A stretch of 64,000 nucleotides of DNA from Bacteroidota bacterium. GTDB taxonomy: Bacteria > Bacteroidota > Bacteroidia > Bacteroidales > GCA-2748055. The position numbers were made by a program, and so were the translations under genes. This document shows, piece by piece, positions 2,912 through 40,805 of this stretch; position 1 is the stretch's first letter, and every line of letters begins with the position of its first letter. Below the pieces are notes generated by a model. It ran no database searches. It saw only the letters and a list, made by a program, of their open reading frames with translations, and was not told the DNA's origin. The DNA is taken from contig JBMOLL010000053.1 in NCBI GenBank assembly GCA_049325415.1, positions 3,684-67,683 on the forward strand. The letters run 5' to 3'.

Positions 2912-4305
2912 ACCAGGAACAGCTGACACTGGGCCAACTGAATAAAAGGATCCGCGAGGTGGTCCTTGAAGGTTTCCCGGTATCGGTATGGGTGGTGGCC
3001 GAGATCATGGAACTCAGCACAAACCGCAGCGGCCATTGCTACATGGAACTCGTTGAGAAAGGCGATAACGATGCCCATATCACCGCACGGGCCCGGGCAA
3101 CCATCTGGGCCTTCCAGTACAGGATGCTCCGGCCCTATTTCGAGACCACCACGGGAATTACCCTGGCACCCGGGCTGAAGATCCTTTTCAAATGCACGGT
3201 TGAGTTCCATGAGCAATATGGCCTGAGCCTCAACATTACCGATATCGACCCGAACTACACCATGGGCGACCTCGCCCGGCGGCGGCAGGAGATCATCAGG
3301 CAACTCAAAGCTGAAGGAATTTTCGATATGAACCGGGAGACCGAACTCCCTCCTGTTCCGCAGCGTATTGCTGTAATCTCCTCGGAAAGTGCCGCCGGCT
3401 ACGGCGATTTCATGAACACCCTGCTGAAAAATCCCTACGGCTTTGCCTTTACAACCCGGCTGTTCCCCGCGATAATGCAGGGTATCGGTGCCGAGGCATC
3501 GGTGATCTCAGCCCTTGAACAGATCTTCGACCAGCAGGAACAGTTCGATTGCGTGGCCCTGATCCGCGGTGGCGGTTCACAGGCCGACCTCGATTGCTTT
3601 AACAGCTATGAGATGGCCTGCCATATCGCCCAGTTCCCGCTTCCGGTGCTGACCGGCATCGGCCATGAAAGAGATGAGAGCATTGCCGACCTCGTTGCCC
3701 ATACACGGCTCAAAACACCAACGGCGGTGGCCGAATTCCTGATCGACCAGCTCCTGGAGTCCGACAGCTACCTGAGACAACTGGAGGATCACTTTTCGAT
3801 CCTCGTCAGGCAGATCATCCAGGATAATCAGACCCGGCTGAGGGAACTGTCGAACGAAACACAGCATCGGGCAAAAGGACTGCTCCAGGGAAAGATGATC
3901 GGGCTCGACCACCTGAACGTGCAGGTCAGAAAGGCCATTAAGAACCTGTCGGACAGGCAGGAACAAAAACTGACAGCCCTGCAGAACCGTATGAGCTATG
4001 CCGCACGGAATTCACTGGTCTCGGGCACAAAAACACTGGATCATACTGCATCGAGGCTGAAGAAAGCCCTTTACCATTCGCTGAATAACCGGAAAATGCA
4101 GTTGCAGATGTTTGAAAAACAGGCCGAACTGGTGAATCCGGTCAATACCCTGAAACGAGGCTACACCCTTACCCTGAGGAACGGGAAAATCATCACGGGG
4201 CTGCAGGAGATCAAGGTTGGTGAGGACATCACAACGCTTTTCCGTGACGGGAACGCAACAAGCCGCATTGAAAAAATCGAAAAAAAAGGAAATAAAAATG
4301 GCTAA
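2908..4305 (+). CDS. xseA: exodeoxyribonuclease VII large subunit
   Basis: The N-terminal OB-fold signature (LTLGQLNKRIREVVLEGFPVSVWVVAEIMELSTNRSGHCYMELVEK), the catalytic core (IAVISSESAAGYGDF, LIRGGGSQADL) and the long C-terminal coiled coil are typical XseA. It overlaps xseB. Confidence 0.9.
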   Translation: MNQEQLTLGQLNKRIREVVLEGFPVSVWVVAEIMELSTNRSGHCYMELVEKGDNDAHITARARATIWAFQYRMLRPYFETTTGITLAPGLKILFKCTVEFHEQYGLSLNITDIDPNYTMGDLARRRQEIIRQLKAEGIFDMNRETELPPVPQRIAVISSESAAGYGDFMNTLLKNPYGFAFTTRLFPAIMQGIGAEASVISALEQIFDQQEQFDCVALIRGGGSQADLDCFNSYEMACHIAQFPLPVLTGIGHERDESIADLVAHTRLKTPTAVAEFLIDQLLESDSYLRQLEDHFSILVRQIIQDNQTRLRELSNETQHRAKGLLQGKMIGLDHLNVQVRKAIKNLSDRQEQKLTALQNRMSYAARNSLVSGTKTLDHTASRLKKALYHSLNNRKMQLQMFEKQAELVNPVNTLKRGYTLTLRNGKIITGLQEIKVGEDITTLFRDGNATSRIEKIEKKGNKNG

Positions 4306-4492
4306 ACAGGAAATCACCTACAAACAGGCAGTGGCAGAGATCGAACAGATCCTGTCGCGGATCGAACAGGAAGAACCTGATGTCGACGAACTCACGGCCC
4401 AGGTGAGGCGGGTCACCGAACTGCTGAAGATCTGCCGGGGCAAACTGATGAAGGCCGAAAAGGATATCGCGGGGATCTTTGAAAACGATTAA
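4298..4492 (+). CDS. xseB: exodeoxyribonuclease VII small subunit
   Basis: ATG 4298 gives a 64-aa helical protein: MAKQEITYKQAVAEIEQILSRIEQEEPDVDELTAQVRRVTELLKICRGKLMKAEKDI. It overlaps the xseA stop by 8 nt. Confidence 0.85.
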   Translation: MAKQEITYKQAVAEIEQILSRIEQEEPDVDELTAQVRRVTELLKICRGKLMKAEKDIAGIFEND

Positions 4493-6126
4493 GAGCTCTT
4501 AGCTCCTGACTTTTTCTTCACTTTCTTCAACACCAGGCTGTTCATCGGGTTTGATGAAAAGCCTGATATTTCCGGCGTAATGAAGCGCACCACCATGTCG
4601 TAATACAGGAAAACCACGGGAGCCTCATCCACGAGGATCCTGTCCATCCGGCTGTAGACCTCAGCTCTTTTTTCATCGTCGGTTATACCGGCAGCCAGTC
4701 TGTAAAGACGGTCATACTCCCCCGAGCTGAAATGAGTGGTATTCGGGCCCTCCGGCGAGAAATTTGCCGTGGTGAACAGGGCCAGGTAGTTTTCGGCATC
4801 CGCGTAATCGGCAATCCATGATCCCCTGAAGAAAACCAGGTTGGAATTGGCGACCATGTTCCGGAAGGAGCCCCCGGTGGCCACAGAGATAGAGATCCGT
4901 ATACCCAGCGAGCCCAGTTCAAACTGAATGTATTCACACAGATCGAGATAGTCGGAAGTAGTGGTGAGTTCCAGTTCCGGCAGGCCTTTCCCGCCAGGGT
5001 AACCGGCTTCTGCCAGCAGGCGGGCGGCACGTCCCGGATCATATCCGTAGCCTTCGCCCGGTGCGAGAGCGCCTTTTAATCCCGGGGGAATAAACCCTCC
5101 CCTTGCCGGTGTGCCAAGGTTATTCCGGAGGTACAGCATCATTCGTTCACGGTCGAAACCCAGGTTGATCGCCTGTCTGACCCGCCTGTCGGCCAGTACC
5201 CGCGACTGTTGTGGCAAATGTACTGTGTCGAGCATAAAACCGAGGTATTCGGTATTCAGGTAGGGCTGAGTCAGCAGAAGAAGCCTGCCCTCGTACTTCG
5301 GGTTGAGCCTGCCGCTGCGTGTGAGCAGTTCATCCTTGTAGGAAGGATGGACGGCATTCAGGAAATCCAGGTTCCCCTTCATAAACTCCAGGAACTCGCT
5401 CTGCTTGTCCTTGATGAAGGTGATCGCCACCGCATCGAGGTAAGGCAGGTGATGGCCCACGCTGTCGGTCTCGAAATACGAGGGATTCCTTACGAGCACC
5501 AGTTTCTCATCCTCCCTCCACATTTTGTACATAAAAGGACCCGTGCCCACAGGCTCGCGGGCAAAAAGGCTTCCCTTTCCTTCGACCACCTCTCTGGGAA
5601 CGATGTAGCAGTAAGGCATGGAAAGCATGGCGAGGAAGGGCGGGAAGGGTTTTTCAAGGCGGATGATGAGGGTCGAATCGTCGGGCACCTCAAAGGGTAG
5701 CTGCCGGCTGATGAGATCAAAGATCCAGATGCCCGGTGAGGCCAGCGCCGGATCGGTGATCCTGCGGAAACTGTATTCCACATCGGCGGCCCTGACCTTC
5801 CTTGTGCCATCGGGAAAAAACGGGGAGGGATGAAAACTGACATCCGTGCGCAGATGAAAGACATACTCCAGCCCGTCACCGGAGATCGCCCACGCTTTCG
5901 CTATGGAAGGCCTTACGTTCAGGCTGTCGTCAAGTTCGACCAGTCCGTTGAAGATCTGGCTCACCGGCCAGATGATCGTCTGGTTGCGGGCAAAAGCCGG
6001 ATCGAGTGTGGTGATCCCCTTGGACTCGTTGTAGCGGAAAACGGTCCTGTCCTCCCCTTCCGACCGGCTGCCGCAGGAAACTGCGCAGGCAGCCAGCACG
6101 AGGAAAACAACAGCCTTCCCGACCAT
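4489..6126 (-). CDS. ABC transporter substrate-binding lipoprotein (family 5, peptide/nickel type)
   Basis: 545 aa with a lipobox (LAACAVSCGS). SBP_bac_5-like blocks are present: GITTLDPA, SPGIWIFD, VRNPSYF, GFDRERM. Its start lies 2 nt after the histidine kinase stop. Confidence 0.75.
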   Translation of the reverse strand: MVGKAVVFLVLAACAVSCGSRSEGEDRTVFRYNESKGITTLDPAFARNQTIIWPVSQIFNGLVELDDSLNVRPSIAKAWAISGDGLEYVFHLRTDVSFHPSPFFPDGTRKVRAADVEYSFRRITDPALASPGIWIFDLISRQLPFEVPDDSTLIIRLEKPFPPFLAMLSMPYCYIVPREVVEGKGSLFAREPVGTGPFMYKMWREDEKLVLVRNPSYFETDSVGHHLPYLDAVAITFIKDKQSEFLEFMKGNLDFLNAVHPSYKDELLTRSGRLNPKYEGRLLLLTQPYLNTEYLGFMLDTVHLPQQSRVLADRRVRQAINLGFDRERMMLYLRNNLGTPARGGFIPPGLKGALAPGEGYGYDPGRAARLLAEAGYPGGKGLPELELTTTSDYLDLCEYIQFELGSLGIRISISVATGGSFRNMVANSNLVFFRGSWIADYADAENYLALFTTANFSPEGPNTTHFSSGEYDRLYRLAAGITDDEKRAEVYSRMDRILVDEAPVVFLYYDMVVRFITPEISGFSSNPMNSLVLKKVKKKSGAKSS

Positions 6127-15393: not shown

Positions 15394-15657
15394 TGGGGGA
15401 AGGGGGACGGCTGTCTCAGCAACTGTTTTTGCTGTTTGCAAAAGACCGGATGGATACTTCTTAACACTGGCGGGCCTCACCCTCCTGTCCCTCTCCACAT
15501 GGAGTGGGATGTTTGTAACTACATATGAATGAATATATTACACAAGGCTTAGATGATCGTTCTGCCGGTGTCAGCCCCACCCTCCTGTCCCTCCCCCGCC
15601 TCGCCTTCGCGAAGCTGCGGCGGAGCAAGGGGTGGGAGGGACGGCTGTCTCAGCACT
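15394..15657. repeat. dispersed GC-rich hairpin repeat family R1 (copy a)
   Basis: The core CCCTCCTGTCCCTCCCCCGCCTCGCCTTCGCGAAGCTGCGGCGGAGCAAGGGGTGGGAGGG is at about 15580-15640. It is preceded by AAGGCTTAGATGATCGTTCTGCCGGTGTCAGCCCC. The CCCTCTCCACATGGAGTGGG hairpin module lies at about 15490-15509. The same modules occur at 48.9 kb and 57.6-58.1 kb. Confidence 0.85.
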
Positions 15658-15754: not shown

Positions 15755-16351
15755 CTACTCCGAACGCCTTCCGCCATAACGGTAATGCCCGGTCACCCTG
15801 AAATCAAAAAGACAGTCCTCCAGCACCTGACCCGCACCGATATTGTGGATCACCTGGTAGCGCTTTCCATCCGCCGAGCGAATGGCCGAGACCAGCCCGA
15901 TATGCGTTATGCCACCGCCCAGGTCCCAGCAGACAATGTCGCCCGGCAGGTAGAGGGAAGGATCGGTCGTATGCGGCAGCACAGTCCCGTGGCGCGCGAA
16001 ATAGGTCATGAGGTTGGGAACGCGCCGGTGGTCGATGTTGCTGTCGGGATGCGAGGCCCCCCAGCTATCTGGATAGGCATCAAAAGCGACCAGCATATCT
16101 TCATGTACTTCTTTCTGCAGGTCGATGCCGAACATCCGGTAGGCCCGGATGAGGACATCGGTACATACCCCCTTTCCCGCAGGGATATCGCCATTGGGAT
16201 AGGGAATGCGATAGTAGGAGGGATCATAACTGACCTGTTGATGGGTCAGCAGCAGGGCCGAATCGGCCAGCTGACGGAAGAACGGATCCTGGGCCCGGCT
16301 GAAGGTCGCGGCTGCGAAAAGAAAGATTATGAAACTAAACACTGGCTTCAT
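15755..16351 (-). CDS. DUF1287 domain-containing secreted protein
   Basis: 198 aa with signal peptide MKPVFSFIIFLFAAATFSRAQ. Blocks YDPSYYRIPYPNGD, GVCTDVLIRAYR, NIDHRRVPNL, GDIVCWDLGGGITHIG match my recollection of the DUF1287 family. The start lies 13 nt after the rSAM stop. Confidence 0.7.
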   Translation of the reverse strand: MKPVFSFIIFLFAAATFSRAQDPFFRQLADSALLLTHQQVSYDPSYYRIPYPNGDIPAGKGVCTDVLIRAYRMFGIDLQKEVHEDMLVAFDAYPDSWGASHPDSNIDHRRVPNLMTYFARHGTVLPHTTDPSLYLPGDIVCWDLGGGITHIGLVSAIRSADGKRYQVIHNIGAGQVLEDCLFDFRVTGHYRYGGRRSE

Positions 16352-16364
16352 ATTCCGGACAGTT

Positions 16365-17384
16365 TCAGAAATTTAACGGGCATCCCGGATCCTTACGGTG
16401 AAAATCGCCGGTAAGCGCCCACGACAGGCACTTCAGTCCGCCACGGCAAAGCTGACGATAATAACAGCTGGCACAGGCACCATCAGTTTTTTCGGGATCA
16501 TCAAGCTCCCTGAGGACACTGTTATTCATATAAATATCCACCAGACTCTCCTGTAAGGCATTTCCCACATTTATGGGCAGTCTTCTGCAGGGCAGTACCG
16601 TTCCATCCGGTAAAACAGCCAGCAGGCTGCGTCCGGCAGAACAGCTGTACGGAACTCCCCCTGCAACCAGGAACTGTAAAGACCTGTTCGCCGCCACTTC
16701 GGTCCGGGTGTGGGCATAGAGACTGAATTTCCTTTTTTCCCTTCCCAGCAACTCAAAATAGGCTTTTGTCTGCTCCGGCGAAAGTTGCAGGGGATCATCC
16801 GGGGAAGAAGGAAGGTACCTGTCGGTCCAGACTTTATACGCCCCCAGTCTCCGTGCAATCCTTACCACTCCGGGAAACTTTTGGTGATTCAAAGCATTTG
16901 CCGTGAAAGAGATCATAACCGGAATATTGTACCTCCTGTAGGTCCTTACCGCCTCCAGGGTACGGTCGAAACTGCCTTCTCCCCTGATCAGGTCATTTGT
17001 TTCCCTTTCGCCTTCCATACTCACCTGGATATAATCTGGTTTCAGTTCCGCCAGGTGCTTCAGTTTTTCCGGGGGAGGCAGAAAACCGTTGGTGAGGATG
17101 CCAAAGGTAAACAGGCCCGACCCGGCAATCCTGTCCAGCAAGGGGAAAAGCTCTTCCTTCAGGAAGGGTTCACCCCCGGTGATATTGATCCTTGCCCGGG
17201 CGTTTCCCCGCTGCTGCCTGCATGCTTTCACAAAATCGGTCATGTTCCCTAACAGGTTCTCCAGCTCGGTTGCCGGAAGTCCCGGTGAGGCATAACTCTC
17301 CTGGTAACAGTGCCTGCATCGGAGGTTACACTGATCCGTAATATGCCACTGAAAAGTGATCCGGTCGGGTAAAATTCTTTCCAT
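16365..17384 (-). CDS. radical SAM/SPASM domain protein (peptide/protein-modifying maturase type)
   Basis: CNLRCRHCY is the CxxxCxxC radical SAM cluster motif, followed by the GGEPF SAM-binding motif. C-terminal SPASM cysteines: CSAGRSLLAVLPDGTVLPC, CASCYYRQLCRGGLKC, DPGCP. The start lies 6 nt after the upstream gene's stop. Confidence 0.85.
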   Translation of the reverse strand: MERILPDRITFQWHITDQCNLRCRHCYQESYASPGLPATELENLLGNMTDFVKACRQQRGNARARINITGGEPFLKEELFPLLDRIAGSGLFTFGILTNGFLPPPEKLKHLAELKPDYIQVSMEGERETNDLIRGEGSFDRTLEAVRTYRRYNIPVMISFTANALNHQKFPGVVRIARRLGAYKVWTDRYLPSSPDDPLQLSPEQTKAYFELLGREKRKFSLYAHTRTEVAANRSLQFLVAGGVPYSCSAGRSLLAVLPDGTVLPCRRLPINVGNALQESLVDIYMNNSVLRELDDPEKTDGACASCYYRQLCRGGLKCLSWALTGDFHRKDPGCPLNF

Positions 17385-17390
17385 TTTTCC

Positions 17391-18308
17391 TCAGCTTCCA
17401 CAACCACCGCAACCACCGCCGCCACAGCCTCCACCTCCCCCGCAGCCGGAACAGCCCGAACCGGAGCAACCCGAACTCATGAAATAGCCCGTACCTGCAT
17501 CCTTCGCTAATTCGATCTGGTCCTCAAACAGGACGCCGATATCGGTTCCCAGAAAACCTGCTACCCCAAAAACGGCAATTCCGTAAAGAAGATTCTGATC
17601 AGCAAGGAGGTTCTCCGTCGCTGTGGTGGTCTTGAGCCATTCGAAGCGCGTCTGCGATTTCTTCAGAAACTTCCTGCCCAGTGCAGAGCTTCTCTCCTTA
17701 TCCGGTTTTATAACCATAAAAAGAGCCGCAAGCAGAGCAATCAGCAAAAGGATCAGGTAACTGAAAGGCTTATCCCTTACAATACCGAAGTAGAGTTTCA
17801 GTCCGCCGGGGATCATAATCAGGAAAAAAGTGACAAGAAGCAACAGGTAACGCCCGTTGCGGATTTGCTGATCGGCAAGGAGCTTCTTCTGCTTAAGATT
17901 TTCAATATTCGGGGCAAAAACCTCTTCCACCGTCTTCAGGGAGTTACGTTTAAGCAAATGCCTCAACAGTCTTGGCTTCTCAAGAAAGTTATAAATGAGT
18001 AGTTCAACAGGGCCTGATTCGGAAAATCCGTTTCCGGATTTTTTGATGAAATGCGGTTTTTTATTTATGTCGATTTCCACAGCCTTGCTTCGCCATAGAT
18101 TAAAAACCGAGGTGAGCACCACTCCCCTGCTCCCCTCTTTCAGATAGGCTATCTCAGAGGGAGACACCATCGTGGGTTCAGGGACCTCATAGCCGGAGGT
18201 ATAATCGCGCAGCATGAGGAAGCGGGCCAAAACGATCAGGCCTGCGGAATACAGGGCAAAATACAGCAGGAACTGTGGTCCGGGAATGGAAATCAACTGG
18301 TCAACCAT
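17391..18308 (-). CDS. TIGR04222-like membrane protein with Gly/Cys-only C-terminal tail
   Basis: 305 aa. The N-terminal IPGPQFLLYFALYSAGLIVLARFL...SPSEIAYLKEGSRGVVLTSVFNLW matches my recollection of the TIGR04222 domain. It has 3-4 TM helices. The last 28 aa are SSGCSGSGCSGCGGGGGCGGGGCGGCGS. Confidence 0.65.
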   Translation of the reverse strand: MVDQLISIPGPQFLLYFALYSAGLIVLARFLMLRDYTSGYEVPEPTMVSPSEIAYLKEGSRGVVLTSVFNLWRSKAVEIDINKKPHFIKKSGNGFSESGPVELLIYNFLEKPRLLRHLLKRNSLKTVEEVFAPNIENLKQKKLLADQQIRNGRYLLLLVTFFLIMIPGGLKLYFGIVRDKPFSYLILLLIALLAALFMVIKPDKERSSALGRKFLKKSQTRFEWLKTTTATENLLADQNLLYGIAVFGVAGFLGTDIGVLFEDQIELAKDAGTGYFMSSGCSGSGCSGCGGGGGCGGGGCGGCGS

Positions 18309-18454
18309 AGCAAAGTCTTTTTTCCGGTGAAAAAAAATATTAAAATCAGCCGGCTCGCGGTTTGACTCAATTTACGAAATTCTTTTATCTGCAAAGGATC
18401 CCGGCAGAATTTTTCATCCCTCCGGAAACAAAATTCAGCTACGGGCCCGGGTAA

Positions 18455-19114
18455 CTATCTTGCCCTGATCACCCTGAACGACCAGTACACCACGTTCAGG
18501 AAGATCCCCAGGAAGAGGGTCATCCCCCAGGTGCCGGGGTGGCTCATGGGTGAGATGACCCGATCGCCGATATCGTACAGCAGCTGAAAAGGTTCGGTGA
18601 GGATGTCCCAGCTGTTCCAGCGCAGGTAACGGCCGACATAAACCCCGAAACTTCCTATAAACAATAGGGAAACAGACAGCAGGATCAGCCAGAATCGGGA
18701 AAGCACGCCCGACAGCATCTTCTCAATATCCATCAGGCTGAACAGTCCGAAAACCAGCCCGGTCCAGGCAAAGCTGAGGATAAGGACCAGGTCGAACCAC
18801 AGCGGCATGGTGCTTTTCAGCCGGAGGTGGAACAGGTCGGTAAGGATATAGGGTGCGTTGGGAAAGAACAACAGCCAGAGCGCAATGATCCCCGCAACGA
18901 CCAGCTTCCTCTTTCTCAGTCCGGGCCGGATGATGACCAGGCTGGTGAGCAGCCAGGGAATGAAGGCCAGGAAAAGGTTCCAGTTGAGAAAAAGGAACTG
19001 GGTGGTATCGGAATAAAACAGACGAAAGAGGGATAATGCAAAACAGAGTGCGGTGGATATCCCCAGGTAAAGTGTCTCGTAATAACGGTTGTGTTCTTTC
19101 AGTATCTGTAACAT
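18455..19114 (-). CDS. DUF1361-like integral membrane protein
   Basis: ORF 18455..19321 trimmed to ATG 19114 (MLQILKEHNRYYETLYLGISTALCF...). Polytopic. Motifs NWNLFLAFIPW and FFPNAPYILTDL are DUF1361-like. It overlaps the dgkA-like gene by 16 nt. Confidence 0.6.
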   Translation of the reverse strand: MLQILKEHNRYYETLYLGISTALCFALSLFRLFYSDTTQFLFLNWNLFLAFIPWLLTSLVIIRPGLRKRKLVVAGIIALWLLFFPNAPYILTDLFHLRLKSTMPLWFDLVLILSFAWTGLVFGLFSLMDIEKMLSGVLSRFWLILLSVSLLFIGSFGVYVGRYLRWNSWDILTEPFQLLYDIGDRVISPMSHPGTWGMTLFLGIFLNVVYWSFRVIRAR

Positions 19115-19476
19115 AAGGCAAGCAGGTGGGGGATAAATACCAACAGACCGATAATGACTGCCGTGACCGCACTGACAAGAACCCCGGCAGCAGCAAGGTC
19201 CTTGATCTTCCTGATCCGCTCGTCCTTCTGCGTGGAATAGAGATCGGCCAGTCGTTCCATGGATGAATTCAGGATCTCGGTGACGAATACAAAACCGATG
19301 GCAAAGCTCAGCGCCAGCCATTCCACCGCACTTACCCTGAACAGAAGACCTGCCGTCACGACCACTGCCGCCGCAAGCAGGTGGATCAGGGCATTGGGCT
19401 CTTCGGTAAACAGGGTATGCAGACCGTTAAAGGCATACCTGAAGCTTTTAATTCTGTCCCTGAGCCTGAATTTCAT
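19099..19476 (-). CDS. dgkA: diacylglycerol kinase family protein (prokaryotic DgkA type)
   Basis: 125 aa with 3 TM helices. Contains the SFRYAFNGL and EILNSSMERLADL (E..N..E..D) signatures. Confidence 0.75.
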   Translation of the reverse strand: MKFRLRDRIKSFRYAFNGLHTLFTEEPNALIHLLAAAVVVTAGLLFRVSAVEWLALSFAIGFVFVTEILNSSMERLADLYSTQKDERIRKIKDLAAAGVLVSAVTAVIIGLLVFIPHLLALCYRY

Positions 19477-31473: not shown

Positions 31474-31695
31474 ATTTCTGGTCGGGTTTATGTGTTTATT
31501 GCTTGCACGCATAATTCTCAATCCGAAAATAAAGATAACAGATCATTGAATACTATCTACCGATTTTACAATTTATTGAGATAAGCAGTTCGCATGGATA
31601 AATGCCGGAATTGTATTACAACCCCTCACTGTTTCGATTGCTATCGGAATTCAGGCCGCTCAGCGTCCTGTTTATTAGTTACTGTAAATTATTTA

Positions 31696-32322
31696 TTATC
31701 TGCAGTTTAAATTATAGTATCTAACCATCGATTCCAAATCATTTTTGCGAAATTCTTTACTTTCAATTTTTTCTACAAGTGAAGGACAATCGCTGAAATA
31801 ATCAATCATATCTTTTTTAAATGACAATCCTACAGGTCTCATTAATTCTCCATTTTCTTTTTGTAAAATATATTTCTCAACGCTATAGGAATATCCACCG
31901 GTACTCATCCCTGTGAAAGAATTGTATGTTCCGCCCGAATGTTGTGTATAATAATAACTGAACAATTTTAGTTTGCCATCCATTTCCAATTTGAGAAAGA
32001 TATTTGTGCTCATTGAAAAAATATTCCCTAATCCGATCGAATTAAACCTTGATAGCATCCGTACATTTTCATATTCATATTTGAACTGTATCTCTTTTGC
32101 ATTATCTAGTTTAAGTACGATTTTTCTCCCGGCTGAATCAAAATATTTTACCTTATACTGTAATTTCTCATAGTTTGGCTCCTGTGTGAAAAAATTTATC
32201 GGAATATTAAAAGTCACATCAATTGTATCATCCGCAAAAAATATTTTGCCTTCAATCTTCTTAGCTTCAAGTTTGAAAGTCAAGACTAATCCAATTGTAA
32301 TCAGAATAACTATTTTTTTCAT
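31696..32322 (-). CDS. hypothetical secreted protein
   Basis: 208 aa with signal peptide MKKIVILITIGLVLTFKLEA. No recognisable motif. Confidence 0.55.
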   Translation of the reverse strand: MKKIVILITIGLVLTFKLEAKKIEGKIFFADDTIDVTFNIPINFFTQEPNYEKLQYKVKYFDSAGRKIVLKLDNAKEIQFKYEYENVRMLSRFNSIGLGNIFSMSTNIFLKLEMDGKLKLFSYYYTQHSGGTYNSFTGMSTGGYSYSVEKYILQKENGELMRPVGLSFKKDMIDYFSDCPSLVEKIESKEFRKNDLESMVRYYNLNCR

Positions 32323-32520
32323 GTATAGAAATTTAAAGTGTTAATTTTGAATGCTTTGGGATGTCCTTTTATGGTGGTTAACGGTCTGCCAATATGGGTA
32401 GGCGTGGTTCTCGGAGCTCGTTCGTATCCACCGTGGAAAACGCTGAAATGGAGGTGGAACATTGAATGCGACCACTAGCTCCAGCCTTACCTATATTGGC
32501 TGTTATCGGCTGGCAATCAT

Positions 32521-33333
32521 TCATTTATGTATTTTGTTTTTAATTTCTATCCACCGTTTTGTCCCAATCTCACTTATTTGTCTTTTTTTGGCAAAATCAA
32601 ATTCAATCCATGCTTTATGTGGATTTTCAGGAATTAATTTACCGTTTTTTATTTTGTCTTTAAGTGTATTATATGCTTCATGAAATCGCTTGTCATTCTT
32701 TGCAATATCATAAAATGACAAAACATAAACATAGTAAAACAGATTATATCGTAAAAATGGGTACTCTATTTTCATAAAAGTTGAACCAATCCCGAAGTTA
32801 CATGGGCCAATCGGCTGGCGAATTTCCCAATGTTGCAATAAAAAATCTACTCCTTTATTCAATTTGTCTATGTCGTCAGCAGAATTATCTCTAAATCGAA
32901 AAGCATCCAATACATATAAAGTTGTTCCAGGGTTGCTTGCATCAGTCAGTGGAGATTTTCCAAGTTTTACAGTCGCACATCTCCAACCACCATCATTCCA
33001 TTGAGTGTCAAGCATCCATTTGTAGCTTGTCTCAATCCTTATATCATTTTTTAAACCAAGTCTCCCTAATCCTGCTATTATCCGAGCTGTCAAACAAGGA
33101 AGTTTTGAGCTTTTGGGTGAATATTTAAAACAACCTTCCGGAGTTTGGTACGAGAAGATAAAATCAACGGTATCTGCAATCTCTGAATTATCATTAATCG
33201 AATAACCAATCTCTCCAAGAACTGATAAAGTATCAATGGTCGAAAATCCAAAGGGAGCGTGAATGTCTCCATCTGCTCTTGACCAAAATTGTCCACCATT
33301 ATCGTTTTGTCTTTGTAATATTTTCTCAATCAT
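32521..33333 (-). CDS. prenyltransferase/terpene-cyclase-like alpha-alpha toroid repeat protein (island paralogue)
   Basis: 270 aa. Q/N-x-x-DGGW-type repeats: QRQNDNGGQFW, DTQWNDGGWRC. It is colinear with 46488-47312: SNPGTTL, DGGW[RK]C, FPF[LF]RYNLFYYVY[VT]LSFY, ENPN/ENPH. Confidence 0.65.
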   Translation of the reverse strand: MIEKILQRQNDNGGQFWSRADGDIHAPFGFSTIDTLSVLGEIGYSINDNSEIADTVDFIFSYQTPEGCFKYSPKSSKLPCLTARIIAGLGRLGLKNDIRIETSYKWMLDTQWNDGGWRCATVKLGKSPLTDASNPGTTLYVLDAFRFRDNSADDIDKLNKGVDFLLQHWEIRQPIGPCNFGIGSTFMKIEYPFLRYNLFYYVYVLSFYDIAKNDKRFHEAYNTLKDKIKNGKLIPENPHKAWIEFDFAKKRQISEIGTKRWIEIKNKIHK

Positions 33334-33373
33334 TAGCTTGTTGTCATTATTGCAGGGTGTCCGTTTTGCTTGC

Positions 33374-33540
33374 CGCTAACTCCTTTATATGATCTCACCC
33401 CCCCTCCCACCTGCACCTCTCTCCCCCTCGCCGAGGTGATATTGAGTGCCTCATTCTCTTAACTGGCTTTTACCGGGTTGAGACCGCAATACAAGTTAAC
33501 CTTTAAGGGAAATATAAACAAGACTTTGCAGTAAAATATA
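33374..33540. repeat. island repeat A, copy 1
   Basis: CGCTAACTCCTTTATATGATCTCACCCCCCCTCCCACCTGC...GATATTGAGTGCCTC...CTTTTACCGGGTTGAGACCGCAATACAAGTTAACCTTTAAGGGAAATATAAACAAG. It is near-identical to 37041-37190 and lies 40 nt upstream of the start codon at 33333. Confidence 0.9.
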
Positions 33541-33735
33541 CGGGCGGAACGGCTGGCGATTCCGGGCTAAACGCCTTTTGAACCCACCTGGTAAAGGACA
33601 ATAACGAAGGTAACAAACTGTATAGCTGAAAATACCCCCCAGGCCAGCATTTTTTGCCAGGCTATTTTCTGCCCCGGGTTTAGTAATTGTTATACCATAA
33701 TGCAAATACCAACATTTAATCGTCTGCAGTACCGG

Positions 33736-34533
33736 TTACCGGTAGCTGGATTCTTTCGTGTCTTCATTTACAAATTTCAACCGAATCCCGATACCTTTAT
33801 GCTTTGTGAGCTCTTTCAGACGACTCCTTTCGTACCATTTCAGATCACGGTATTCCTTTTGAAAATGAATAAAGGACAGATCATTTAAATATCGTTCATA
33901 TTCCACATAATAACTGTCCAGCAAGCTGATGAGATCCTGATAATTGTTTTTGCTGTTGAGCCGGATCTGCAGGTACAAGGAATCAGATCCGATGATCGCT
34001 CCCAGTTTTTCCTGTAAAGCCTTGCCGCTGTATACAGAGTCATCAATGAATATGCTTTGACCACAGATTGTAAAGTCCAGTATATCCGGGCTTAAGGTAT
34101 CAAACTTAAAAAAAAAGGAGGGCAACTCCAGAGGCGGAAGAGTATATACAATGCCGGCACTGTCGTCAATTTCGTTTGTCAGAAAGACTATCCCCGGAAA
34201 TCCTCCATCCCTGAAGGCGTTGAGAATGGAATCGATGGTGGCATAATTCACTGATTTCGGACAAATAAAAGCTATCCTGAAAAAGTTACTTCCATTATAG
34301 CATTCGATGTAGTTAAAAATGTCGGCGCGAAAACTTTTTAAATCCTTAATTTCTTTACCGTTACAACTTAATCTCCCGTTTTCGTATTTCACGAAGGCAT
34401 ATCGCAGCGAGAGATATGATCCAATCCTTTCGGCATGTGCGGAAGATGGCAATTCCAGGCTTTTCTTACACGAAACAGAAATAATCAGCAAAAGGATCAT
34501 CAGAACTGCCAGAGATCTATTCGTTGTTTTCAT
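33736..34533 (-). CDS. hypothetical lipoprotein
   Basis: 265 aa with lipobox LLIISVSCKK. No recognisable motif. Confidence 0.55.
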   Translation of the reverse strand: MKTTNRSLAVLMILLLIISVSCKKSLELPSSAHAERIGSYLSLRYAFVKYENGRLSCNGKEIKDLKSFRADIFNYIECYNGSNFFRIAFICPKSVNYATIDSILNAFRDGGFPGIVFLTNEIDDSAGIVYTLPPLELPSFFFKFDTLSPDILDFTICGQSIFIDDSVYSGKALQEKLGAIIGSDSLYLQIRLNSKNNYQDLISLLDSYYVEYERYLNDLSFIHFQKEYRDLKWYERSRLKELTKHKGIGIRLKFVNEDTKESSYR

Positions 34534-34562
34534 ATGCCGGGCGGTTTACTTTTTTAATAATC

Positions 34563-34720
34563 TCCTCCCCACCTAACTCCCCAAGGAATTTTAATATTTC
34601 ATCGAATGCCATGTTGCGGGATGAGTTGGGGCGTACCTTTTCATACCCATGTCTGTTTCATTATATGTACGAAATTTCATTATAGACTGTAAACCAGCAT
34701 TGAACAGGACAATTTATTAT
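34563..34720. repeat. island repeat B, copy 1
   Basis: 158 bp. It aligns without indels to 35263-35420, an offset of exactly 700 bp. I counted 18 mismatches by hand. Confidence 0.9.
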
Positions 34721-34734
34721 TCCCGGTGGTTAAT

Positions 34735-35040
34735 TTATTTCTTCAAAGCTTTGGAATTTGAAAGAAGCCGTGAGCTATGATGAACTGTTAGAATATGAAT
34801 CGAATTCTCGTCAACAATTCTATATACTATCCTGTAACTCCCTCTGATTATTTGACGGAATGCTTCATCCTCAAATTCAGGAACCATAGGCCCTGCTTTT
34901 GGATGTTCTTCAAGAATATCAACACTTTCGAAAAGTTCAAGAACAGTTATCTCTGCATAACGCACAGAATCTTTAGCGATATAATCACCAATATCATTTA
35001 AATCATTGATAGCGTTGTCGGTCCAGACTATTTTAACCAT
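34735..35040 (-). CDS. type II toxin-antitoxin system RelE/ParE family toxin
   Basis: 101 aa. The pattern IVWTDNAINDLNDIGDYIAKDS...AGPMVPEF....FRQIIRGSYRIVYRIVDENSIHILTVHHSSR is typical of ParE/RelE. Confidence 0.8.
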   Translation of the reverse strand: MVKIVWTDNAINDLNDIGDYIAKDSVRYAEITVLELFESVDILEEHPKAGPMVPEFEDEAFRQIIRGSYRIVYRIVDENSIHILTVHHSSRLLSNSKALKK

Positions 35041-35216
35041 TTTCCAAGCTTTTGTTTAGCTTCTTCCTTGGTATTTGTATTTCCATTTAATGAATCCGAC
35101 AAACCTTTTTGGACTTTTTCAACAAAGATAATATGGTCAATTACCTGATCAATTGTAAGATTTTCAGGTAGTTTATCCATGGAATTTATCAATTGAGTCT
35201 TTGTAATCATTGTCAT
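35028..35216 (-). CDS. putative antitoxin of the RelE/ParE pair
   Basis: 62 aa. It overlaps the toxin start by 13 nt and is in the usual antitoxin-first order. No strong motif. Confidence 0.6.
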   Translation of the reverse strand: MTMITKTQLINSMDKLPENLTIDQVIDHIIFVEKVQKGLSDSLNGNTNTKEEAKQKLGKWLK

Positions 35217-35262
35217 TGTGTTTCCTCAAATATACAAAATCAACGACTTAATATCAAAGAAC

Positions 35263-35420
35263 TCCTACCCACCTAACTCCCCCTGGAATATTAATATTTC
35301 ATCGAATGACATTTTGCGGGATGAGTTGGGGCTTACCTTTTCATACCCATGTCTGTTTCATTAAAAGAACAAAATTTCATTATAGACCGTACACCGGCAT
35401 TGCACAGGACCAATTGTTAT
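35263..35420. repeat. island repeat B, copy 2
   Basis: Direct repeat of 34563-34720. See copy 1. Confidence 0.9.
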
Positions 35421-35443
35421 CGGCAGGCGTTTGAACTCCGGGA

Positions 35444-35857
35444 TCATTCAATTAAGACCTTGTGTTCAATGATTGAACTATCCCTGCTAATAAAATTCAG
35501 TGAGTATTGACCTTTCACCCATGTTTTAAATTCATATGATAATACTTTTACAGTTGGAACTGTTAAACATATTGTCTCTTCTTCCAATGCTCCAAATGCT
35601 TTTATATTAACTGTTTTGCCATTGGTTACTACCATAAAATCAGTGATATAATTGCAATCATTTGGTACCGGACAATAAACATCGAATGAAATTACTTTGC
35701 CTGTAGTACCCGTTGAATCTCCAATTACTTTACTGATATACCATTGATCGAGTCCTATAGGAATTTCGCTTGAATATTTATCACACCCAAAACTAAAAAG
35801 CAATATTACAATTAAGCTAAACAGGGGGCTGAAAATTTGCATTTTAATCGTTTTCAT
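35444..35857 (-). CDS. hypothetical small lipoprotein
   Basis: 137 aa with lipobox LLFSFGCDK. Confidence 0.55.
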   Translation of the reverse strand: MKTIKMQIFSPLFSLIVILLFSFGCDKYSSEIPIGLDQWYISKVIGDSTGTTGKVISFDVYCPVPNDCNYITDFMVVTNGKTVNIKAFGALEEETICLTVPTVKVLSYEFKTWVKGQYSLNFISRDSSIIEHKVLIE

Positions 35858-36036
35858 ACTTATGTAACTTAATTCGTAATGGTATCAATCGCTTACCGCT
35901 AACGGTCCGACGGTATGGACTGCGCCGACCGTTGAAGCATTATACTTTTGTATTTAGGGTTATATATAAATATACGATTTACTTTCTTTTTATCGGTAAA
36001 ACAGGCGTTGGCTATACCGTGCTTAGGTTCTGAAAA

Positions 36037-36972
36037 TTAATTGCATATTACAAAACTGAAATCAGCCAAATTGTTATCAACTTCTACACTTGAAGGAAAA
36101 GGCAATTCCCATACACATATAGTTACAAGACTCGGCAAGAAATAAAGTGATAATTTCTCGAGATCTCTGCTCTGCGAGATATCTATTTCGTTAACATCAA
36201 AATATGAAACAGTCAATTCTTTTAATTCACTACAATTCGACAAATCCAATTCGGTGATATTGACCTGTGTGCCACCTACTAATAATTCCTTTAAATGAAT
36301 ATTCCTTGAGAAATCAATATTTGTAAGTGGAGCACCTATCTTTAGGATTTCTAAATTGATATTATTCGTAATATCCAATTCAGTTAATGCATAAGTCAAC
36401 ATTTCAAAACTATACAAGTTTATATTTGTCGAGAGATCAATGTTGGTAATATTTGTAAATCCGATGTTTAGATCTCGCAGATTCTTCAAGCCAATAATAT
36501 TAAGTGTATCAATCTCATTCAAACAACAATTTATATATTCCAATTTGATATTATGAGATAGATCAATTGTCCCTTTTATACCACTGTCATAACACTTTAA
36601 ATATTTCAACTTGGGATTACTACTTAAATCTAAAGGTCCATTGATCTTATTATTACTGCAATCAAGGAAGACTAGGTTAACAAAGGCCTCAATGCCTGTC
36701 AAATCTTCAATTTTACCGAAGTTAGAAAGTACATTTTGGTGATCGAAAAGATTCAAACTGTCAACTACTTCTGCTTCCTGGAAACTGATTTCACAATCGC
36801 AATCTGAATCGTATCCAGCTGCAATCAGTTTTTCTTTAAAATTTGCATCTGGTATTGGCACATGGTATCCAGGGATAAATACAGTTCCTTCGGTGCATTT
36901 CTCTTCTAATTTCTCGCAAGAAATTATAGATAACAAAATGAAGATTATGTATGTACGAACCTTAATTCTCAT
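36037..36972 (-). CDS. leucine-rich repeat lipoprotein
   Basis: 311 aa with lipobox LLSIISCEK. The N-terminal cap IPDANFKEKLIAAGYD is followed by about nine ~22-aa LRRs of the form LxxLxLxxNxIxxIDLSxN. Confidence 0.8.
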   Translation of the reverse strand: MRIKVRTYIIFILLSIISCEKLEEKCTEGTVFIPGYHVPIPDANFKEKLIAAGYDSDCDCEISFQEAEVVDSLNLFDHQNVLSNFGKIEDLTGIEAFVNLVFLDCSNNKINGPLDLSSNPKLKYLKCYDSGIKGTIDLSHNIKLEYINCCLNEIDTLNIIGLKNLRDLNIGFTNITNIDLSTNINLYSFEMLTYALTELDITNNINLEILKIGAPLTNIDFSRNIHLKELLVGGTQVNITELDLSNCSELKELTVSYFDVNEIDISQSRDLEKLSLYFLPSLVTICVWELPFPSSVEVDNNLADFSFVICN

Positions 36973-37040
36973 TGTTGGGTTTTATGAATTAACGAACTTT
37001 TAGTTTTTTATATTGAACGAACTGGTGTGCAATTTTTTGA

Positions 37041-37190
37041 ACCTAACCTATTTATATGATCTCACCCCCTTCCCACCTGCATCGCTATCCCCCTCGACGG
37101 GGCGATATTGAGTGCCTCCTTCTCTCAACTGACTTTTACCGGGTTGAGACCGCAATACAAGTTAATCTTTAAGGGAAATATAAACAAGCC
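37041..37190. repeat. island repeat A, copy 2
   Basis: See copy 1. It lies 68 nt upstream of the LRR gene start (36972). Confidence 0.9.
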
Positions 37191-37584
37191 TTCCCGGGAA
37201 AAACTGCAGGAGGCGATGCGGGGGATTACGGGGAGGGACAGGAGGGAGGGGGCGGTTCTGACCAGCCAAAATCCAGAGAATGCAGGATTTACCCCAATAC
37301 ACCCTGGATTAGTTTTGATTTTTACAAAACACGGGAGGCCGAAGGCCTACAGACAGCAGAGGAGAAAAATAAAATGAGTACACTCCAGGTAATCCGGAAT
37401 AAATTAACCGGGAGAGCTTTTGCTGTTGGTAAACGCCAGACCCCTTATGTCGGTCTGAGTAAATTTGCAGCATAATTTTTTCTAAAAAATTTGGTTTTGC
37501 CATAGAACAGTTTTAGCTGCTGCCGTGCTGTTTCTCTGCAAACATAGGGCTCCATGTTTGCTCAGCTGCTTGCATAAGCGGTAG

Positions 37585-38352
37585 TCATGATGCACTATAT
37601 CTTGCAATTGCTACGCTGATGTTATCAATGCCACCACGCCTATTTGCAAGTGAAATTAAGTCGTTCGCTGTTTTGTAAATATTGCCCTTTACTGTTTTTA
37701 TAATCTCTTTCTCGTCAACCATACCATATAAACCATCACTACAAAGCATTAATGTTTCATCATCTATTTCTTGCTCGAAAATATCAGGTGTAACAGTTTC
37801 GGATAGGCCAAGTGCCTTAGTCAAAATATTTCTTCGTGGATGATTGATAGCTTGTTCTTTAGTGATTATTTTATTGTCCAACATTACTTGAACGGCTGAA
37901 TGATCTTTGGTAATTTGTCGGAGTGATTTATTAGGATTAATTATATATGCTCTTGAATCGCCAACATTAACAATATATATGTGATTGTCAACAATAATTG
38001 CACCAACTAAAGTTGTTCCTATATTTCCTTGTTGATTTTCTGATATTGCCCAAACCTCTTTATTTGCATCTTTTACGGCTTTAGTCAGAACATTTTCAAA
38101 TTTTATTGTGTCATTAATTGATGTGTAATAAAAAATGCTTTCAGCAACTGATTCAATAAATTTTTTTGCAGCAACTTCAGAAGCAACTTCTCCTTTTTTA
38201 AGTCCACCCATACCGTCAGCAACAACAAGAATTCCATAGTTGACTTCGTTTCTAAAACTTTGTGAATTTAAAATTAATGACGCAACACTATCTTGATTGG
38301 AAGTTCTCTCCTTGCCAATGTCTGTTTTCGTATAAAGTCTAATTGGTAGCAT
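37585..38352 (-). CDS. PP2C-family Ser/Thr phosphatase (catalytic domain only)
   Basis: 255 aa. Motifs: TDIGKERTSNQD, VVADGMGG, GTT, NVGDSR, LCSDGL, GGIDNIS. Confidence 0.9.
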   Translation of the reverse strand: MLPIRLYTKTDIGKERTSNQDSVASLILNSQSFRNEVNYGILVVADGMGGLKKGEVASEVAAKKFIESVAESIFYYTSINDTIKFENVLTKAVKDANKEVWAISENQQGNIGTTLVGAIIVDNHIYIVNVGDSRAYIINPNKSLRQITKDHSAVQVMLDNKIITKEQAINHPRRNILTKALGLSETVTPDIFEQEIDDETLMLCSDGLYGMVDEKEIIKTVKGNIYKTANDLISLANRRGGIDNISVAIARYSAS

Positions 38353-38374
38353 TCTCCTATTGTTAGAAATTTCA

Positions 38375-39202
38375 CTAAGATAATTTTTGATAAATTGGTT
38401 TTAGTGTGTCTATTACTTGTTGCATATTTTGGTATCTTTCGTTTACATTAATCTTAATCATCTTGAGAATTGCAGTATCAAGTTCGGAAGAAATAGATGA
38501 ATGATTTTGAGAGGATGGAGTTGGAACTGTATAACTCTGTCCGTTATTTTCATTAAAAACTTGAGGAAGTTTTCCTGTCATCATTTCATAAAATAATACA
38601 CCTAAAGAATAAATGTCCGTTCGCTGGTTTACTTCGCCAAATGCAGACGGATGAAACCATTGCTCAGGAGAACAATAGCCAGGAGTTCTCCACATTCCTG
38701 CAACTGTCAATGCGATTGATTCTCTGTTAACATCTTTACCGATTCCCCAATCAGCAACTTTAATTTGATTTTGTTCAGTAAATAAAAGATTAGCTGGCTT
38801 AATGTCTCTATGATAAATATTTTCTGAATGTGCCAATTTTAAAGCTTCTGCAACAGGAAGTATCACATTTCCCAATGTCCATTTTTGAGAAAAAAGTTTT
38901 TTTTGTTCAACAATAATGTTAACCATTTTGTCTTTTAAAGACCCACCAGCCATGTATTCCATTACATACCATGGACCATAATTTGGTGGATTGCCGTTTA
39001 TATTTGACTCGAAAATATTAACAACATGAGTATGATTTAGAGATTGAATAATTTTAATTTCTCTTTCAAATCGTTTTATCCTTTCAGGGTCTGGGCGCTT
39101 CAATTCCTTTAAAGCGCCTCTTTGCCCCGTCGCAGATTGAACTTCATATACCTTTCCGAATCCTCCTTCGTCAAGTATTCTTATAATATTCCAAGTTGCC
39201 AT
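38375..39202 (-). CDS. Hanks-type Ser/Thr protein kinase (catalytic domain only)
   Basis: 275 aa. Motifs: EGGFGKVY (P-loop), GALK (VAIK Lys), HRDIKPANLL, DWG in place of DFG, and CSPE (APE). Confidence 0.9.
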   Translation of the reverse strand: MATWNIIRILDEGGFGKVYEVQSATGQRGALKELKRPDPERIKRFEREIKIIQSLNHTHVVNIFESNINGNPPNYGPWYVMEYMAGGSLKDKMVNIIVEQKKLFSQKWTLGNVILPVAEALKLAHSENIYHRDIKPANLLFTEQNQIKVADWGIGKDVNRESIALTVAGMWRTPGYCSPEQWFHPSAFGEVNQRTDIYSLGVLFYEMMTGKLPQVFNENNGQSYTVPTPSSQNHSSISSELDTAILKMIKINVNERYQNMQQVIDTLKPIYQKLS

Positions 39203-39225
39203 GAGTAGTTAAATATTTATTGTGA

Positions 39226-40767: not shown

Positions 40768-40805
40768 ATCAGCTTATTTTTATTATCATCGTGGTGTCAA
40801 AATTA

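Follow-up and report, generated by a model that had tools for sequence, protein, structure and literature searches.

A radical SAM/SPASM enzyme as candidate maturase of the Gly/Ser/Cys tails of TIGR04222-type membrane proteins

What does a radical S-adenosylmethionine (SAM) enzyme with a SPASM domain act on when its gene directly follows that of a membrane protein ending in 28 residues of glycine, serine, and cysteine? The question is raised by a 64-kb stretch of DNA (64,000 nucleotides; here, the window) from a contig of a Bacteroidota bacterium (JBMOLL010000053.1), in which the membrane protein (here, the carrier), the enzyme, and a DUF1287 protein are encoded one after another on the minus strand. 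An original prediction, made from the sequence alone, had named the tail as the likely substrate in a protein-tethered system resembling those of ribosomally synthesized and post-translationally modified peptides (RiPPs), and comparative genomics supports it. Our analysis suggests that the cassette as a whole probably encodes a dedicated radical SAM maturase of the carrier tail, which would be an O2-independent counterpart of the MNIO (DUF692) enzymes and would most likely make a thiooxazole.

The carrier tail and its association with the enzyme

The carrier belongs to TIGR04222 (87.7 bits against a cutoff of 43), with its residues 17 to 250 aligned to positions 6 to 226 of a domain of about 229 positions. 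Proteins of this family have been described as having several transmembrane segments and, C-terminal to them, an unstructured region that is rich in Ser and Gly and contains scattered Cys residues (PMC12452194), a description that the window carrier fits. Its C-terminal 28 residues, SSGCSGSGCSGCGGGGGCGGGGCGGCGS, are exactly those quoted in the original prediction and consist of 16 Gly, 6 Ser, and 6 Cys, not 8 Cys as had been counted. All six Cys residues sit in Gly-Cys dipeptides, and the carrier has no other Cys. The tail ends in the family-wide motif CGGGGCGGCG-x, which is common to the 120 best carrier homologues. In an AlphaFold2 (AF2) model of the carrier (pLDDT, 85.8), helices span residues 10 to 33, 147 to 177, and 183 to 200, and residues 272 to 303 have pLDDT values below 50. 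Foldseek found no PDB match to this model (best E value, 1.9), a carrier profile searched against PDB sequences matched only artificial Gly/Ser linkers, and the 120-residue cytoplasmic domain could be assigned neither a known fold nor a RiPP recognition element (RRE). The exact carrier sequence is absent from a collection of 15 billion proteins in which both flanking proteins of the same NCBI contig are present; the deposited annotation may use another start codon for the carrier, or may have missed the gene.

With an enzyme profile, 80 genome loci were retrieved, and their open reading frames (ORFs) of at least 60 amino acids were scored for a tail, defined as three or more Cys residues and a Gly/Ser/Cys share of 75% or more over the final 25 residues. 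Only 31 of 2572 ORFs carry such a tail, none of them farther than about 1 kb from the enzyme gene and most directly next to it. The tailed ORF is mostly found directly upstream of the enzyme gene, often overlapping it, and in some loci it is downstream or convergent. When 87 loci (the 80, five close relatives, a Nitrospirae locus described below, and the window) were ranked by a hidden Markov model of the family, a tailed neighbor was present in 34 of the 43 loci scoring at least 295 bits and in 2 of the 44 scoring below (Fisher p = 1.6e-13). Among the high-scoring loci that lack a strictly defined tail, L028 and L033 have degenerate tails and L004 ends at a contig edge. The pairing extends over Chloroflexota, Desulfobacterota, Gamma- and Betaproteobacteria, Nitrospirota, Verrucomicrobiota, Armatimonadota, Bacilli, Clostridia, and one archaeal metagenome-assembled genome (MAG), and radical-SAM-linked loci are mostly from anoxic habitats (gut, rumen, peat, and groundwater). 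In the five Bacteroidota-like relatives, whose enzymes are 45 to 52% identical to that of the window, a TIGR04222-plus-tail gene lies directly upstream in every case (split in one), and every other flanking gene differs. Because DUF1287 and the other neighbors are not retained, the conserved unit is a module of two genes, the tail-bearing carrier and the radical SAM/SPASM enzyme. Conservation of the pairing, which the original prediction had set as a check, is thus strong across phyla and across different carrier proteins. Locus L014 has two tailed carriers beside one radical SAM gene.

These counts bear on the simplest alternative, a fortuitous adjacency of the enzyme gene to a tail that is meaningless low-complexity sequence. 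The tail is indeed of low complexity, and its DNA is GC-rich and weakly periodic, but its Gly and Cys codons are mixed, the terminal motif is kept across phyla, and the clustering of tailed ORFs around the enzyme gene is far from chance, so that this alternative is effectively refuted. In the whole window, the carrier is the only ORF with a Gly/Ser/Cys tail.

The tail-bearing partners of the enzyme are TIGR04222 proteins, DUF2207 proteins (long or short, often with LemA upstream), and TPM-domain proteins; the TIGR04222 and DUF2207_C models overlap, and some proteins match both. Because the N-terminal domains of the carriers differ, while the tail and the enzyme persist, the tail is the feature that the partners have in common. 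Tails are made up of 45% Gly, 24% Ser, and 22% Cys, with neighboring Cys residues mostly 2 to 3 residues apart and flanked by Gly or Ser (99% at position -1 and 98% at position +1) in the radical-SAM-linked and MNIO-linked sets alike. In Escherichia coli, the TPM protein YgcG likewise ends in a Gly/Ser tail, one that contains no Cys, and has no such enzyme beside it, which, as a single example, fits the idea that tail Cys residues go with the enzyme.

A different enzyme class has been linked to the same carriers. Of the proteins that contain Cys, lack a signal peptide, and are encoded immediately 5' of MNIO genes, 40% belong to TIGR04222, and the Cys-rich C-terminal segments of these have been proposed as MNIO substrates; the adjacent MNIOs are close to the bufferin enzymes, bufferin thiooxazoles are described as copper-chelating, and MNIO is absent from a third of TIGR04222-bearing genomes (PMC12452194, Microb Genom 2025). 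A radical SAM partner of TIGR04222 is not mentioned in the text or the supplements of that paper, and we found none for such tails in the searchable literature, including searches for DUF2207 with radical SAM and for TIGR04340. The window has no MNIO gene according to tblastn with two MNIO sequences, and the enzyme adjacent to its carrier is the radical SAM/SPASM protein. Distant carrier homologues with the terminus of the window carrier, CGGGGCGGCGS, were then examined for their neighboring genes. The carrier lies beside an MNIO in loci L086 (Bryobacteraceae) and L088 and beside a radical SAM/SPASM enzyme in L087 (Nitrospirae), where the enzyme is 42% identical to that of the window (E = 1e-92). 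Judged from gene neighborhoods, the pattern is one of non-orthologous displacement, in which a single putative substrate scaffold is served by two alternative and unrelated Cys-modifying enzymes. The anoxic habitats of the radical-SAM-linked loci fit with an O2-independent route replacing the O2-dependent MNIO, and we slightly favor the view that the enzyme is a functional equivalent of MNIO.

All three of these loci contain a gene of about 250 codons with a weak nucleotidyltransferase (NTP_transf_2/Polbeta) signature (L086:3258-4004, L087:3250-3999, and L088:3190-3945); similar genes are found at L005:3176-3982 and in L013, L014, L021, and L116, and the window has none. The MNIO-linked copy of L086 and the radical-SAM-linked copy of L087 are 45% identical, which is above the identity between the two MNIO-linked copies, and the protein may be an accessory factor common to both systems. 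In L086, a single MNIO gene follows two tandem paralogous TIGR04222 carriers (4001-4858 and 4861-5727; 53% identical), each of which has a Cys-rich tail.

Metagenome contigs were scanned with a DNA pattern for the terminal motif followed by one residue and a stop codon (CGGGGCGGCG-x-stop). The scan yielded 75 in-frame tails, of which 41 are MNIO-linked, 1 is radical-SAM-linked (L116, E = 2e-125), and 33 have neither enzyme in view; it selects the window's own motif and draws mostly on oxic soils and waters, so that the ratio of MNIO to radical SAM is biased. Maturase-linked tails have a median of 6 Cys, whereas the 33 orphan tails mostly have just the three terminal Cys. Such three-Cys-only carriers (ending in …CGGGGCGGCG[GS] after an Asp/Ser/Gly-rich stretch; L096, L098, L102, L109, L111, L121, L149, L163, L166, L168, and others) have neither an MNIO nor a radical SAM enzyme within several kb, and their maturase may be encoded elsewhere. 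This terminal Cys/Gly motif also closes an unrelated protein of 81 amino acids that ends in …RGGGPCGGGGCGGCGM (L092:1601-1846, L103:539-784, and L167:12226-12471; one human-gut contig).

The orphans are what could be expected if the tail were not a substrate at all but a metal-binding, Fe-S-binding, or docking element, the carrier being the membrane partner of an enzyme that acts on a cofactor or a lipid. Matches of the enzyme to NirJ and AhbD-type cofactor enzymes (100 to 108 bits) point the same way, and modification of the tail is so far a prediction. However, three unrelated carrier ectodomains have the Cys-bearing tail as their sole shared feature beside the enzyme, maturase-linked tails hold the extra Cys residues that orphans mostly lack, and the position beside the carrier is occupied by either of two unrelated classes of Cys-modifying enzymes. 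We therefore regard a nonsubstrate tail as quite improbable and hold with good confidence that the tail is the substrate of the enzyme.

The enzyme and its candidate chemistry

The enzyme scores 78.5 bits with the radical SAM model PF04055 (gathering threshold, 29.5) and 34.8 bits with the SPASM model (PF13186/TIGR04085; Pfam threshold, 21.5). The sequence CNLRCRHCY, at residues 19 to 27, contains C19, C23, and C26, which are invariant. The SPASM domain is recognized by the seven-Cys motif CX9-15GX4C ... CX2CX5CX3C ... C, which goes with two auxiliary clusters; in the enzyme, the layout is C248-x12-G261-x4-C266 ... C304-x2-C307-x5-C313-x5-C319 ... C335, with x5 instead of the consensus x3 as the last spacing. 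The seven SPASM Cys residues and G261 are invariant in an alignment of 19 diverse homologues. In an alignment of 59 homologues, C304 and C319 are kept at 90% or more, and the remaining SPASM Cys and the CX3CX2C Cys residues are invariant. The motif and the full SPASM Cys set named in the original prediction are thus borne out, and the seven Cys residues predict two auxiliary clusters. NCBI annotates the enzyme just as a "radical SAM protein" (MFZ5940192.1). Gene callers often push the radical SAM ORF at its 5' end into the tail-coding DNA, in another frame (P0005, P0032, and P0071; window positions 17249-17434, minus strand), and the resulting spurious enzyme N termini of the type MDVVVAAVAVEV… are an annotation artefact typical of the cassette.

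No curated NCBIfam model claims the enzyme, and no equivalog cutoff is approached. The top-scoring models are the ACGX-system maturase TIGR04340 (153 bits; cutoff, 400), SbtM TIGR04082 (142.6 bits; cutoff, 350), and TIGR04053 (123 bits; cutoff, 395), and the ranking is the same across 19 members of the enzyme family, all of which fall well short of the ACGX cutoff (best E value among the 19, 6e-46). There is no ACGX-repeat peptide beside the enzyme, the neighbor being a membrane protein of 305 amino acids. Alignment to SbtM is confined to positions 199 to 515 of the 516-position model, and no selenocysteine peptide is present. Thus, a search for a family with another known substrate, which the original prediction had named as a possible refutation, found none. 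Three further assignments were rejected: an anaerobic sulfatase-maturating enzyme (anSME), with lower scores and no partner sulfatase; a NirJ/AhbD-type cofactor enzyme; and a maturase of CXXX-repeat or Cys-every-fifth peptides, the latter two with lower scores and absent partner genes.

The enzyme has no N-terminal RRE: it starts 18 residues ahead of CX3CX2C, its alignments to CteB and SkfB do not begin before about residue 100 to 114 of those chains, and that to SbtM begins at model position 199. With a 305-residue membrane protein as the candidate substrate, and with neither an RRE in the enzyme nor a partner gene, the cassette lies outside the canonical RiPP systems. Searches of solved structures with the family profile gave CteB (5wgg; E = 8e-25) and SkfB (6efn; E = 2e-24) as the best matches, followed by PqqE and, in fourth place, anSME (E = 2e-17). 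An AF2 model of the enzyme (pLDDT, 92.5; pTM, 0.91) was matched by Foldseek about equally to SuiB, anSME, SkfB, PqqE, and CteB (TM-scores, 0.68 to 0.78); anSME reached whole-length TM-scores of 0.76 and 0.71, and it alone has the compact, RRE-less length of the enzyme. Comparison of the predicted models supports a full SPASM enzyme and does not discriminate its chemistry.

In the mechanism that we propose, the carrier would display its disordered C-terminal Gly/Ser/Cys tail to the adjacent enzyme, its dedicated maturase. The enzyme, in the cytoplasm, would cleave SAM at the CX3CX2C cluster, and the resulting 5'-deoxyadenosyl radical would take the beta-hydrogen of a Cys residue within the (G/S)-C-(G/S) repeats, with the two SPASM auxiliary clusters serving for substrate binding and electron removal. 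As an O2-independent replacement of the MNIO that is found beside the same carriers, it would oxidize the six tail Cys residues, most likely to several 5-thiooxazoles, and the outcome would be a membrane-tethered, thiol- or heterocycle-rich tail that probably binds metal (Cu). SbtM forms a thio(seleno)oxazole at Gly-Cys or Gly-selenocysteine by two SAM-dependent oxidations that start with abstraction of the Cys beta-hydrogen (PMC9204691), and 5-thiooxazole is the product both of bufferin-type MNIOs and of SbtM (PMC12668002). Thiooxazole is favored because it is the only chemistry that we found reported for both enzyme classes; we put it forward tentatively, as the leading candidate product.

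Several points weigh against this reading. The tail-modifying activity of the enzyme family is proposed from comparative genomics, and the metal-binding role would follow by analogy; the genes flanking the cassette in the window are not metal-related. Five high-scoring enzymes (L073, L023, L031, L032, and L030) have no tailed gene within 1.5 kb, no maturase of either type is in view for 33 of the 75 carriers selected by motif, and the terminal three-Cys motif may have a role of its own that is independent of a maturase. The similarity to SbtM (143 bits) does not stand out from that to the ACGX maturase (153) or TIGR04053 (123), the N-terminal domain of SbtM, about 200 amino acids, is absent, with the match starting at model position 199, and the closest solved structures by profile, CteB and SkfB, are thioether formers. 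From this spread of scores over SbtM, ACGX, and CteB, it follows that the sequence does not single out thiooxazole chemistry. Finally, the predicted sidedness of the tail conflicts, being periplasmic in the literature and dependent here on a marginal fourth hydrophobic stretch (see below).

The closest structural relatives lead to the main rival of the thiooxazole reading, a sactionine-type maturase that would link the sulfur of tail Cys residues to a Gly or Ser alpha-carbon or a Ser beta-carbon, giving a knotted tail that resists proteases or binds metal. Thioethers are the outcome of most characterized SPASM enzymes on Cys-rich peptides, and the open Aux-I site of CteB ligates a substrate Cys, an arrangement with which the seven SPASM Cys residues of the window enzyme are compatible. 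However, the tails are 91% Gly/Ser/Cys and lack the usual side-chain acceptors, and the NCBIfam models for sactipeptide and ranthipeptide maturases give 72 bits (StsB) and 71 bits (PapB), well short of the ACGX and SbtM scores. MNIOs, which replace the enzyme beside the same carriers, are not known for thioethers, so that an equivalent product of the two enzyme classes would go unexplained. We consider thioether cross-linking unlikely.

Other oxidations of the tail can be envisaged, such as an anSME-like conversion of Cys to thioaldehyde or formylglycine, or chemistry at the alpha-carbon of Gly or Ser. The enzyme resembles anSME in lacking an RRE and in its whole-length fold, and the first step of SbtM has been described as an anSME-like thiol oxidation (PMC9204691). 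Yet no anSME model is among the 25 best NCBIfam matches, anSME ranks below CteB, SkfB, and PqqE by profile, and neither a sulfatase beside the cassette nor a sulfatase-type target motif is present; several aldehydes on a Gly-rich tail would also be without precedent. Such chemistry thus appears improbable. If the thiooxazole reading is generalized, a large, uncurated radical SAM/SPASM family, spread over many bacterial phyla, with Firmicutes of the gut and rumen among them, and present in one archaeal MAG, would put multiple 5-thiooxazoles, or an equivalent heterocycle, on TIGR04222, DUF2207, and TPM tails, an O2-independent route to the modification that MNIOs make in aerobes; we offer this generalization with more reserve than its parts.

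Sidedness of the tail and layout of the locus

Hydropathy, charge, and AF2 secondary structure predict three strong transmembrane helices in the carrier (residues 10-28, 154-172, and 182-200). The first loop (125 amino acids, residues ~29-153) and the third loop (42 amino acids, residues ~201-242) are rich in Lys and Arg and are therefore predicted to be cytoplasmic. A fourth hydrophobic stretch (residues 243-261) is marginal, with a mean hydropathy of 1.84; it falls below threshold in several homologues and is split by AF2 into short helices (239-247, 249-252, and 256-271). If this stretch spans the membrane, the tail lies outside, in agreement with the periplasmic location predicted for TIGR04222 Cys-rich tails (PMC12452194); otherwise, the tail would be in the cytoplasm. 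TPM and short DUF2207 carriers consist of a signal or anchor, an ectodomain, one transmembrane helix, a positive stretch, and the tail, a layout that by helix parity and the positive stretch places their tails in the cytoplasm. Sec-exported bufferins are thought to be modified prior to export (PMC12452194), and the same order, modification first and translocation second, is conceivable for a short C-terminal tail; a periplasmic tail, which the original prediction would have taken as a refutation, is therefore not sound grounds for one.

The positions of the cassette genes and of their functional segments are listed in Table 1. As originally described, the genes are closely spaced, with a carrier/enzyme junction of 6 nucleotides (TGA-ggaaaa-ATG) and an enzyme/DUF1287 junction of 13 nucleotides (TGA-aactgtccggaat-ATG), and the spacing suggests translational coupling of all three. 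The family assignments made at the outset also hold, each protein scoring above the cutoff of its profile.

Table 1. Positions of cassette features in the window
Feature	Positions	Strand	Basis
Carrier gene, TIGR04222-domain membrane protein, 305 aa	17391..18308	-	TIGR04222 profile, AF2 model, hydropathy
Tail-coding segment, last 28 codons (SSGCSGSGCSGCGGGGGCGGGGCGGCGS), proposed substrate	17394..17477	-	Direct sequence reading
Radical SAM/SPASM enzyme, 339 aa, proposed tail maturase	16365..17384	-	Pfam Radical_SAM and SPASM
CNLRCRHCY codons, CX3CX2C motif for the SAM-cleaving [4Fe-4S] cluster (C19, C23, C26)	17304..17330	-	Invariant in alignments
SPASM region, residues 248-335	16380..16643	-	Seven Cys and G261; Pfam SPASM, residues 248-308
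DUF1287 protein with signal peptide, 198 aa	15755..16351	-	Pfam DUF1287; 13 nt 3' of enzyme gene
Intergenic region of 146 nt 5' of carrier gene, presumed promoter	18309..18454	-	Inferred from position

The third protein matches DUF1287 (PF06940) with 217.3 bits (Pfam gathering threshold, 25), gives a weak CHAP match as well, and has, by inspection, the Sec-type signal sequence MKPVFSFIIFLFAAATFSRA ahead of QD, in line with the signal peptide originally assigned to it. A sequence search found no relative with a solved structure. Its gene is probably cotranscribed here with those of the carrier and the enzyme. No DUF1287 gene was found near the pair in L001 to L085, that is, in the 80 genome loci and the five 45 to 52% identical relatives. 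The order of genes for diacylglycerol kinase, DUF1361, the carrier, the enzyme, and a downstream protein recurs only in a 91% identical relative (L209), whose partial last ORF is presumed to be DUF1287. Because synteny is kept only in this relative, DUF1287 is a lineage-specific neighbor outside the conserved two-gene module, and its suggested role as a processing or accessory component finds no support in the other loci.

The region upstream of the carrier gene gave no match to a sigma-70-type promoter in a scan that does not cover Bacteroidota promoters, and terminator-like sites around the cassette were found at chance level only, in a scan that is not informative for Bacteroidota. A spacer of 444 nucleotides 3' of the DUF1287 gene contains direct repeats (15395-15655), one of 27 nucleotides at 15395 and 15629 and one of 23 nucleotides at 15474 and 15574, together with one inverted repeat of 18 nucleotides; the 17-mer GCTGAGACAGCCGTCCC occurs within the window only at two sites in this spacer. 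On the other side of the cassette, the DUF1361 ORF (18455-19476, minus strand), listed with 288 amino acids, overlaps the diacylglycerol kinase gene (19099-19476); it is called with 219 amino acids in the 91% identical relative, and its true start is probably farther downstream. Farther away, window positions 31500 to 41000 form a low-GC island (GC content of 0.33 to 0.38 versus about 0.52 elsewhere) that was probably acquired horizontally and encodes a Ser/Thr protein kinase (38375-39202), a PP2C phosphatase (37585-38352), a leucine-rich repeat protein (36037-36972), and further ORFs without a Pfam match.

Comparison with known systems

The original prediction had presented the system as unusual. 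Its radical SAM partner for TIGR04222 does appear to be new, but the idea of tail maturation is not, a maturase-modified TIGR04222 tail having already been published for MNIO in 2025 (PMC12452194). What the system apparently adds is a radical SAM/SPASM family dedicated to such tails, which also serves DUF2207 and TPM carriers and seems to stand in a displacement relation to MNIO. Known radical SAM/SPASM peptide maturases act on small leader-core peptides, whereas the target of the enzyme described here would apparently be the disordered C terminus of entire membrane proteins, and neither a leader nor an RRE would be involved. The system is present in many gut and rumen bacteria and touches the TIGR04222, DUF2207, and TPM/LemA neighborhoods. 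Among cultured bacteria, Chitinispirillum alkaliphilum, Desulforegula conservatrix, and Carboxylicivirga spp. appear to have it, and it is also found in a MAG of Ruminococcus flavefaciens. If our reading is true, protein-tethered, RiPP-like metal-binding tails anchored in the membrane would form a widespread class, and the LemA, DUF2207, and TPM membrane-protein families would gain a first indication of their function. The hypothesis is testable with two genes by mass spectrometry and UV absorbance.

The nearest system is that of MNIO and TIGR04222 (PMC12452194), with which the window shares the carrier family, the Gly/Ser/Cys tail, the terminal motif, and the proposed modification of the tail by an adjacent enzyme; an optional nucleotidyltransferase-like neighbor of about 250 amino acids is shared as well. 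The differences are that the partner here is a radical SAM/SPASM enzyme, with no MNIO or PME-type partner in the window, and that this enzyme also serves DUF2207 and TPM carriers.

Among radical SAM/SPASM enzymes, SbtM (SbtMa; TIGR04082) acts on Cys or selenocysteine set in Gly (a GGUG-type motif), forms the heterocycle of bufferin-type MNIOs, and is the second-best NCBIfam match (PMC9204691), so that a functional analogy is possible. It differs in its N-terminal region of about 200 residues and in its substrate, a small selenocysteine-containing peptide rather than the tail of a 305-residue membrane protein, and the match stays far below the SbtM cutoff; moreover, the family of the window enzyme is not restricted to Geobacter and Desulfobacteria. 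The computationally defined ACGX system (TIGR04340) shares the RRE-less architecture of about 340 amino acids and gives the top-scoring model, again far below its cutoff. Its target repeats consist of a small residue, Cys, Gly, and another small residue (TIGRFAMs entry) and belong to small ACGX-repeat peptides, for which no gene is present here, whereas the repeats described here are (G/S)-C-(G/S), spaced by 2 to 5 residues and fused to membrane proteins. CteB (the SCIFF maturase), SkfB, and other thioether-forming SPASM/twitch maturases likewise have Cys-rich targets and include the closest solved structures by profile, but they differ from the window enzyme in having an N-terminal RRE and in their leader-core peptide substrates, which offer side-chain acceptors; the window cassette has no RRE, no leader peptide, and no such acceptors in its tail.

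The anSMEs, finally, are RRE-less SPASM enzymes that oxidize Cys in a full-length protein, with a TM-score of 0.76 to the window enzyme, although neither a sulfatase nor its target motif is present here and the sequence match is weaker than that to peptide maturases. They also share the logic of the system that we propose: anSME is the anaerobic counterpart of the O2-dependent formylglycine-generating enzyme (FGE), and radical SAM enzymes and MNIO would, if our reading is true, form a parallel anaerobic/aerobic pair for a Cys modification that is tied to copper handling in bufferins.

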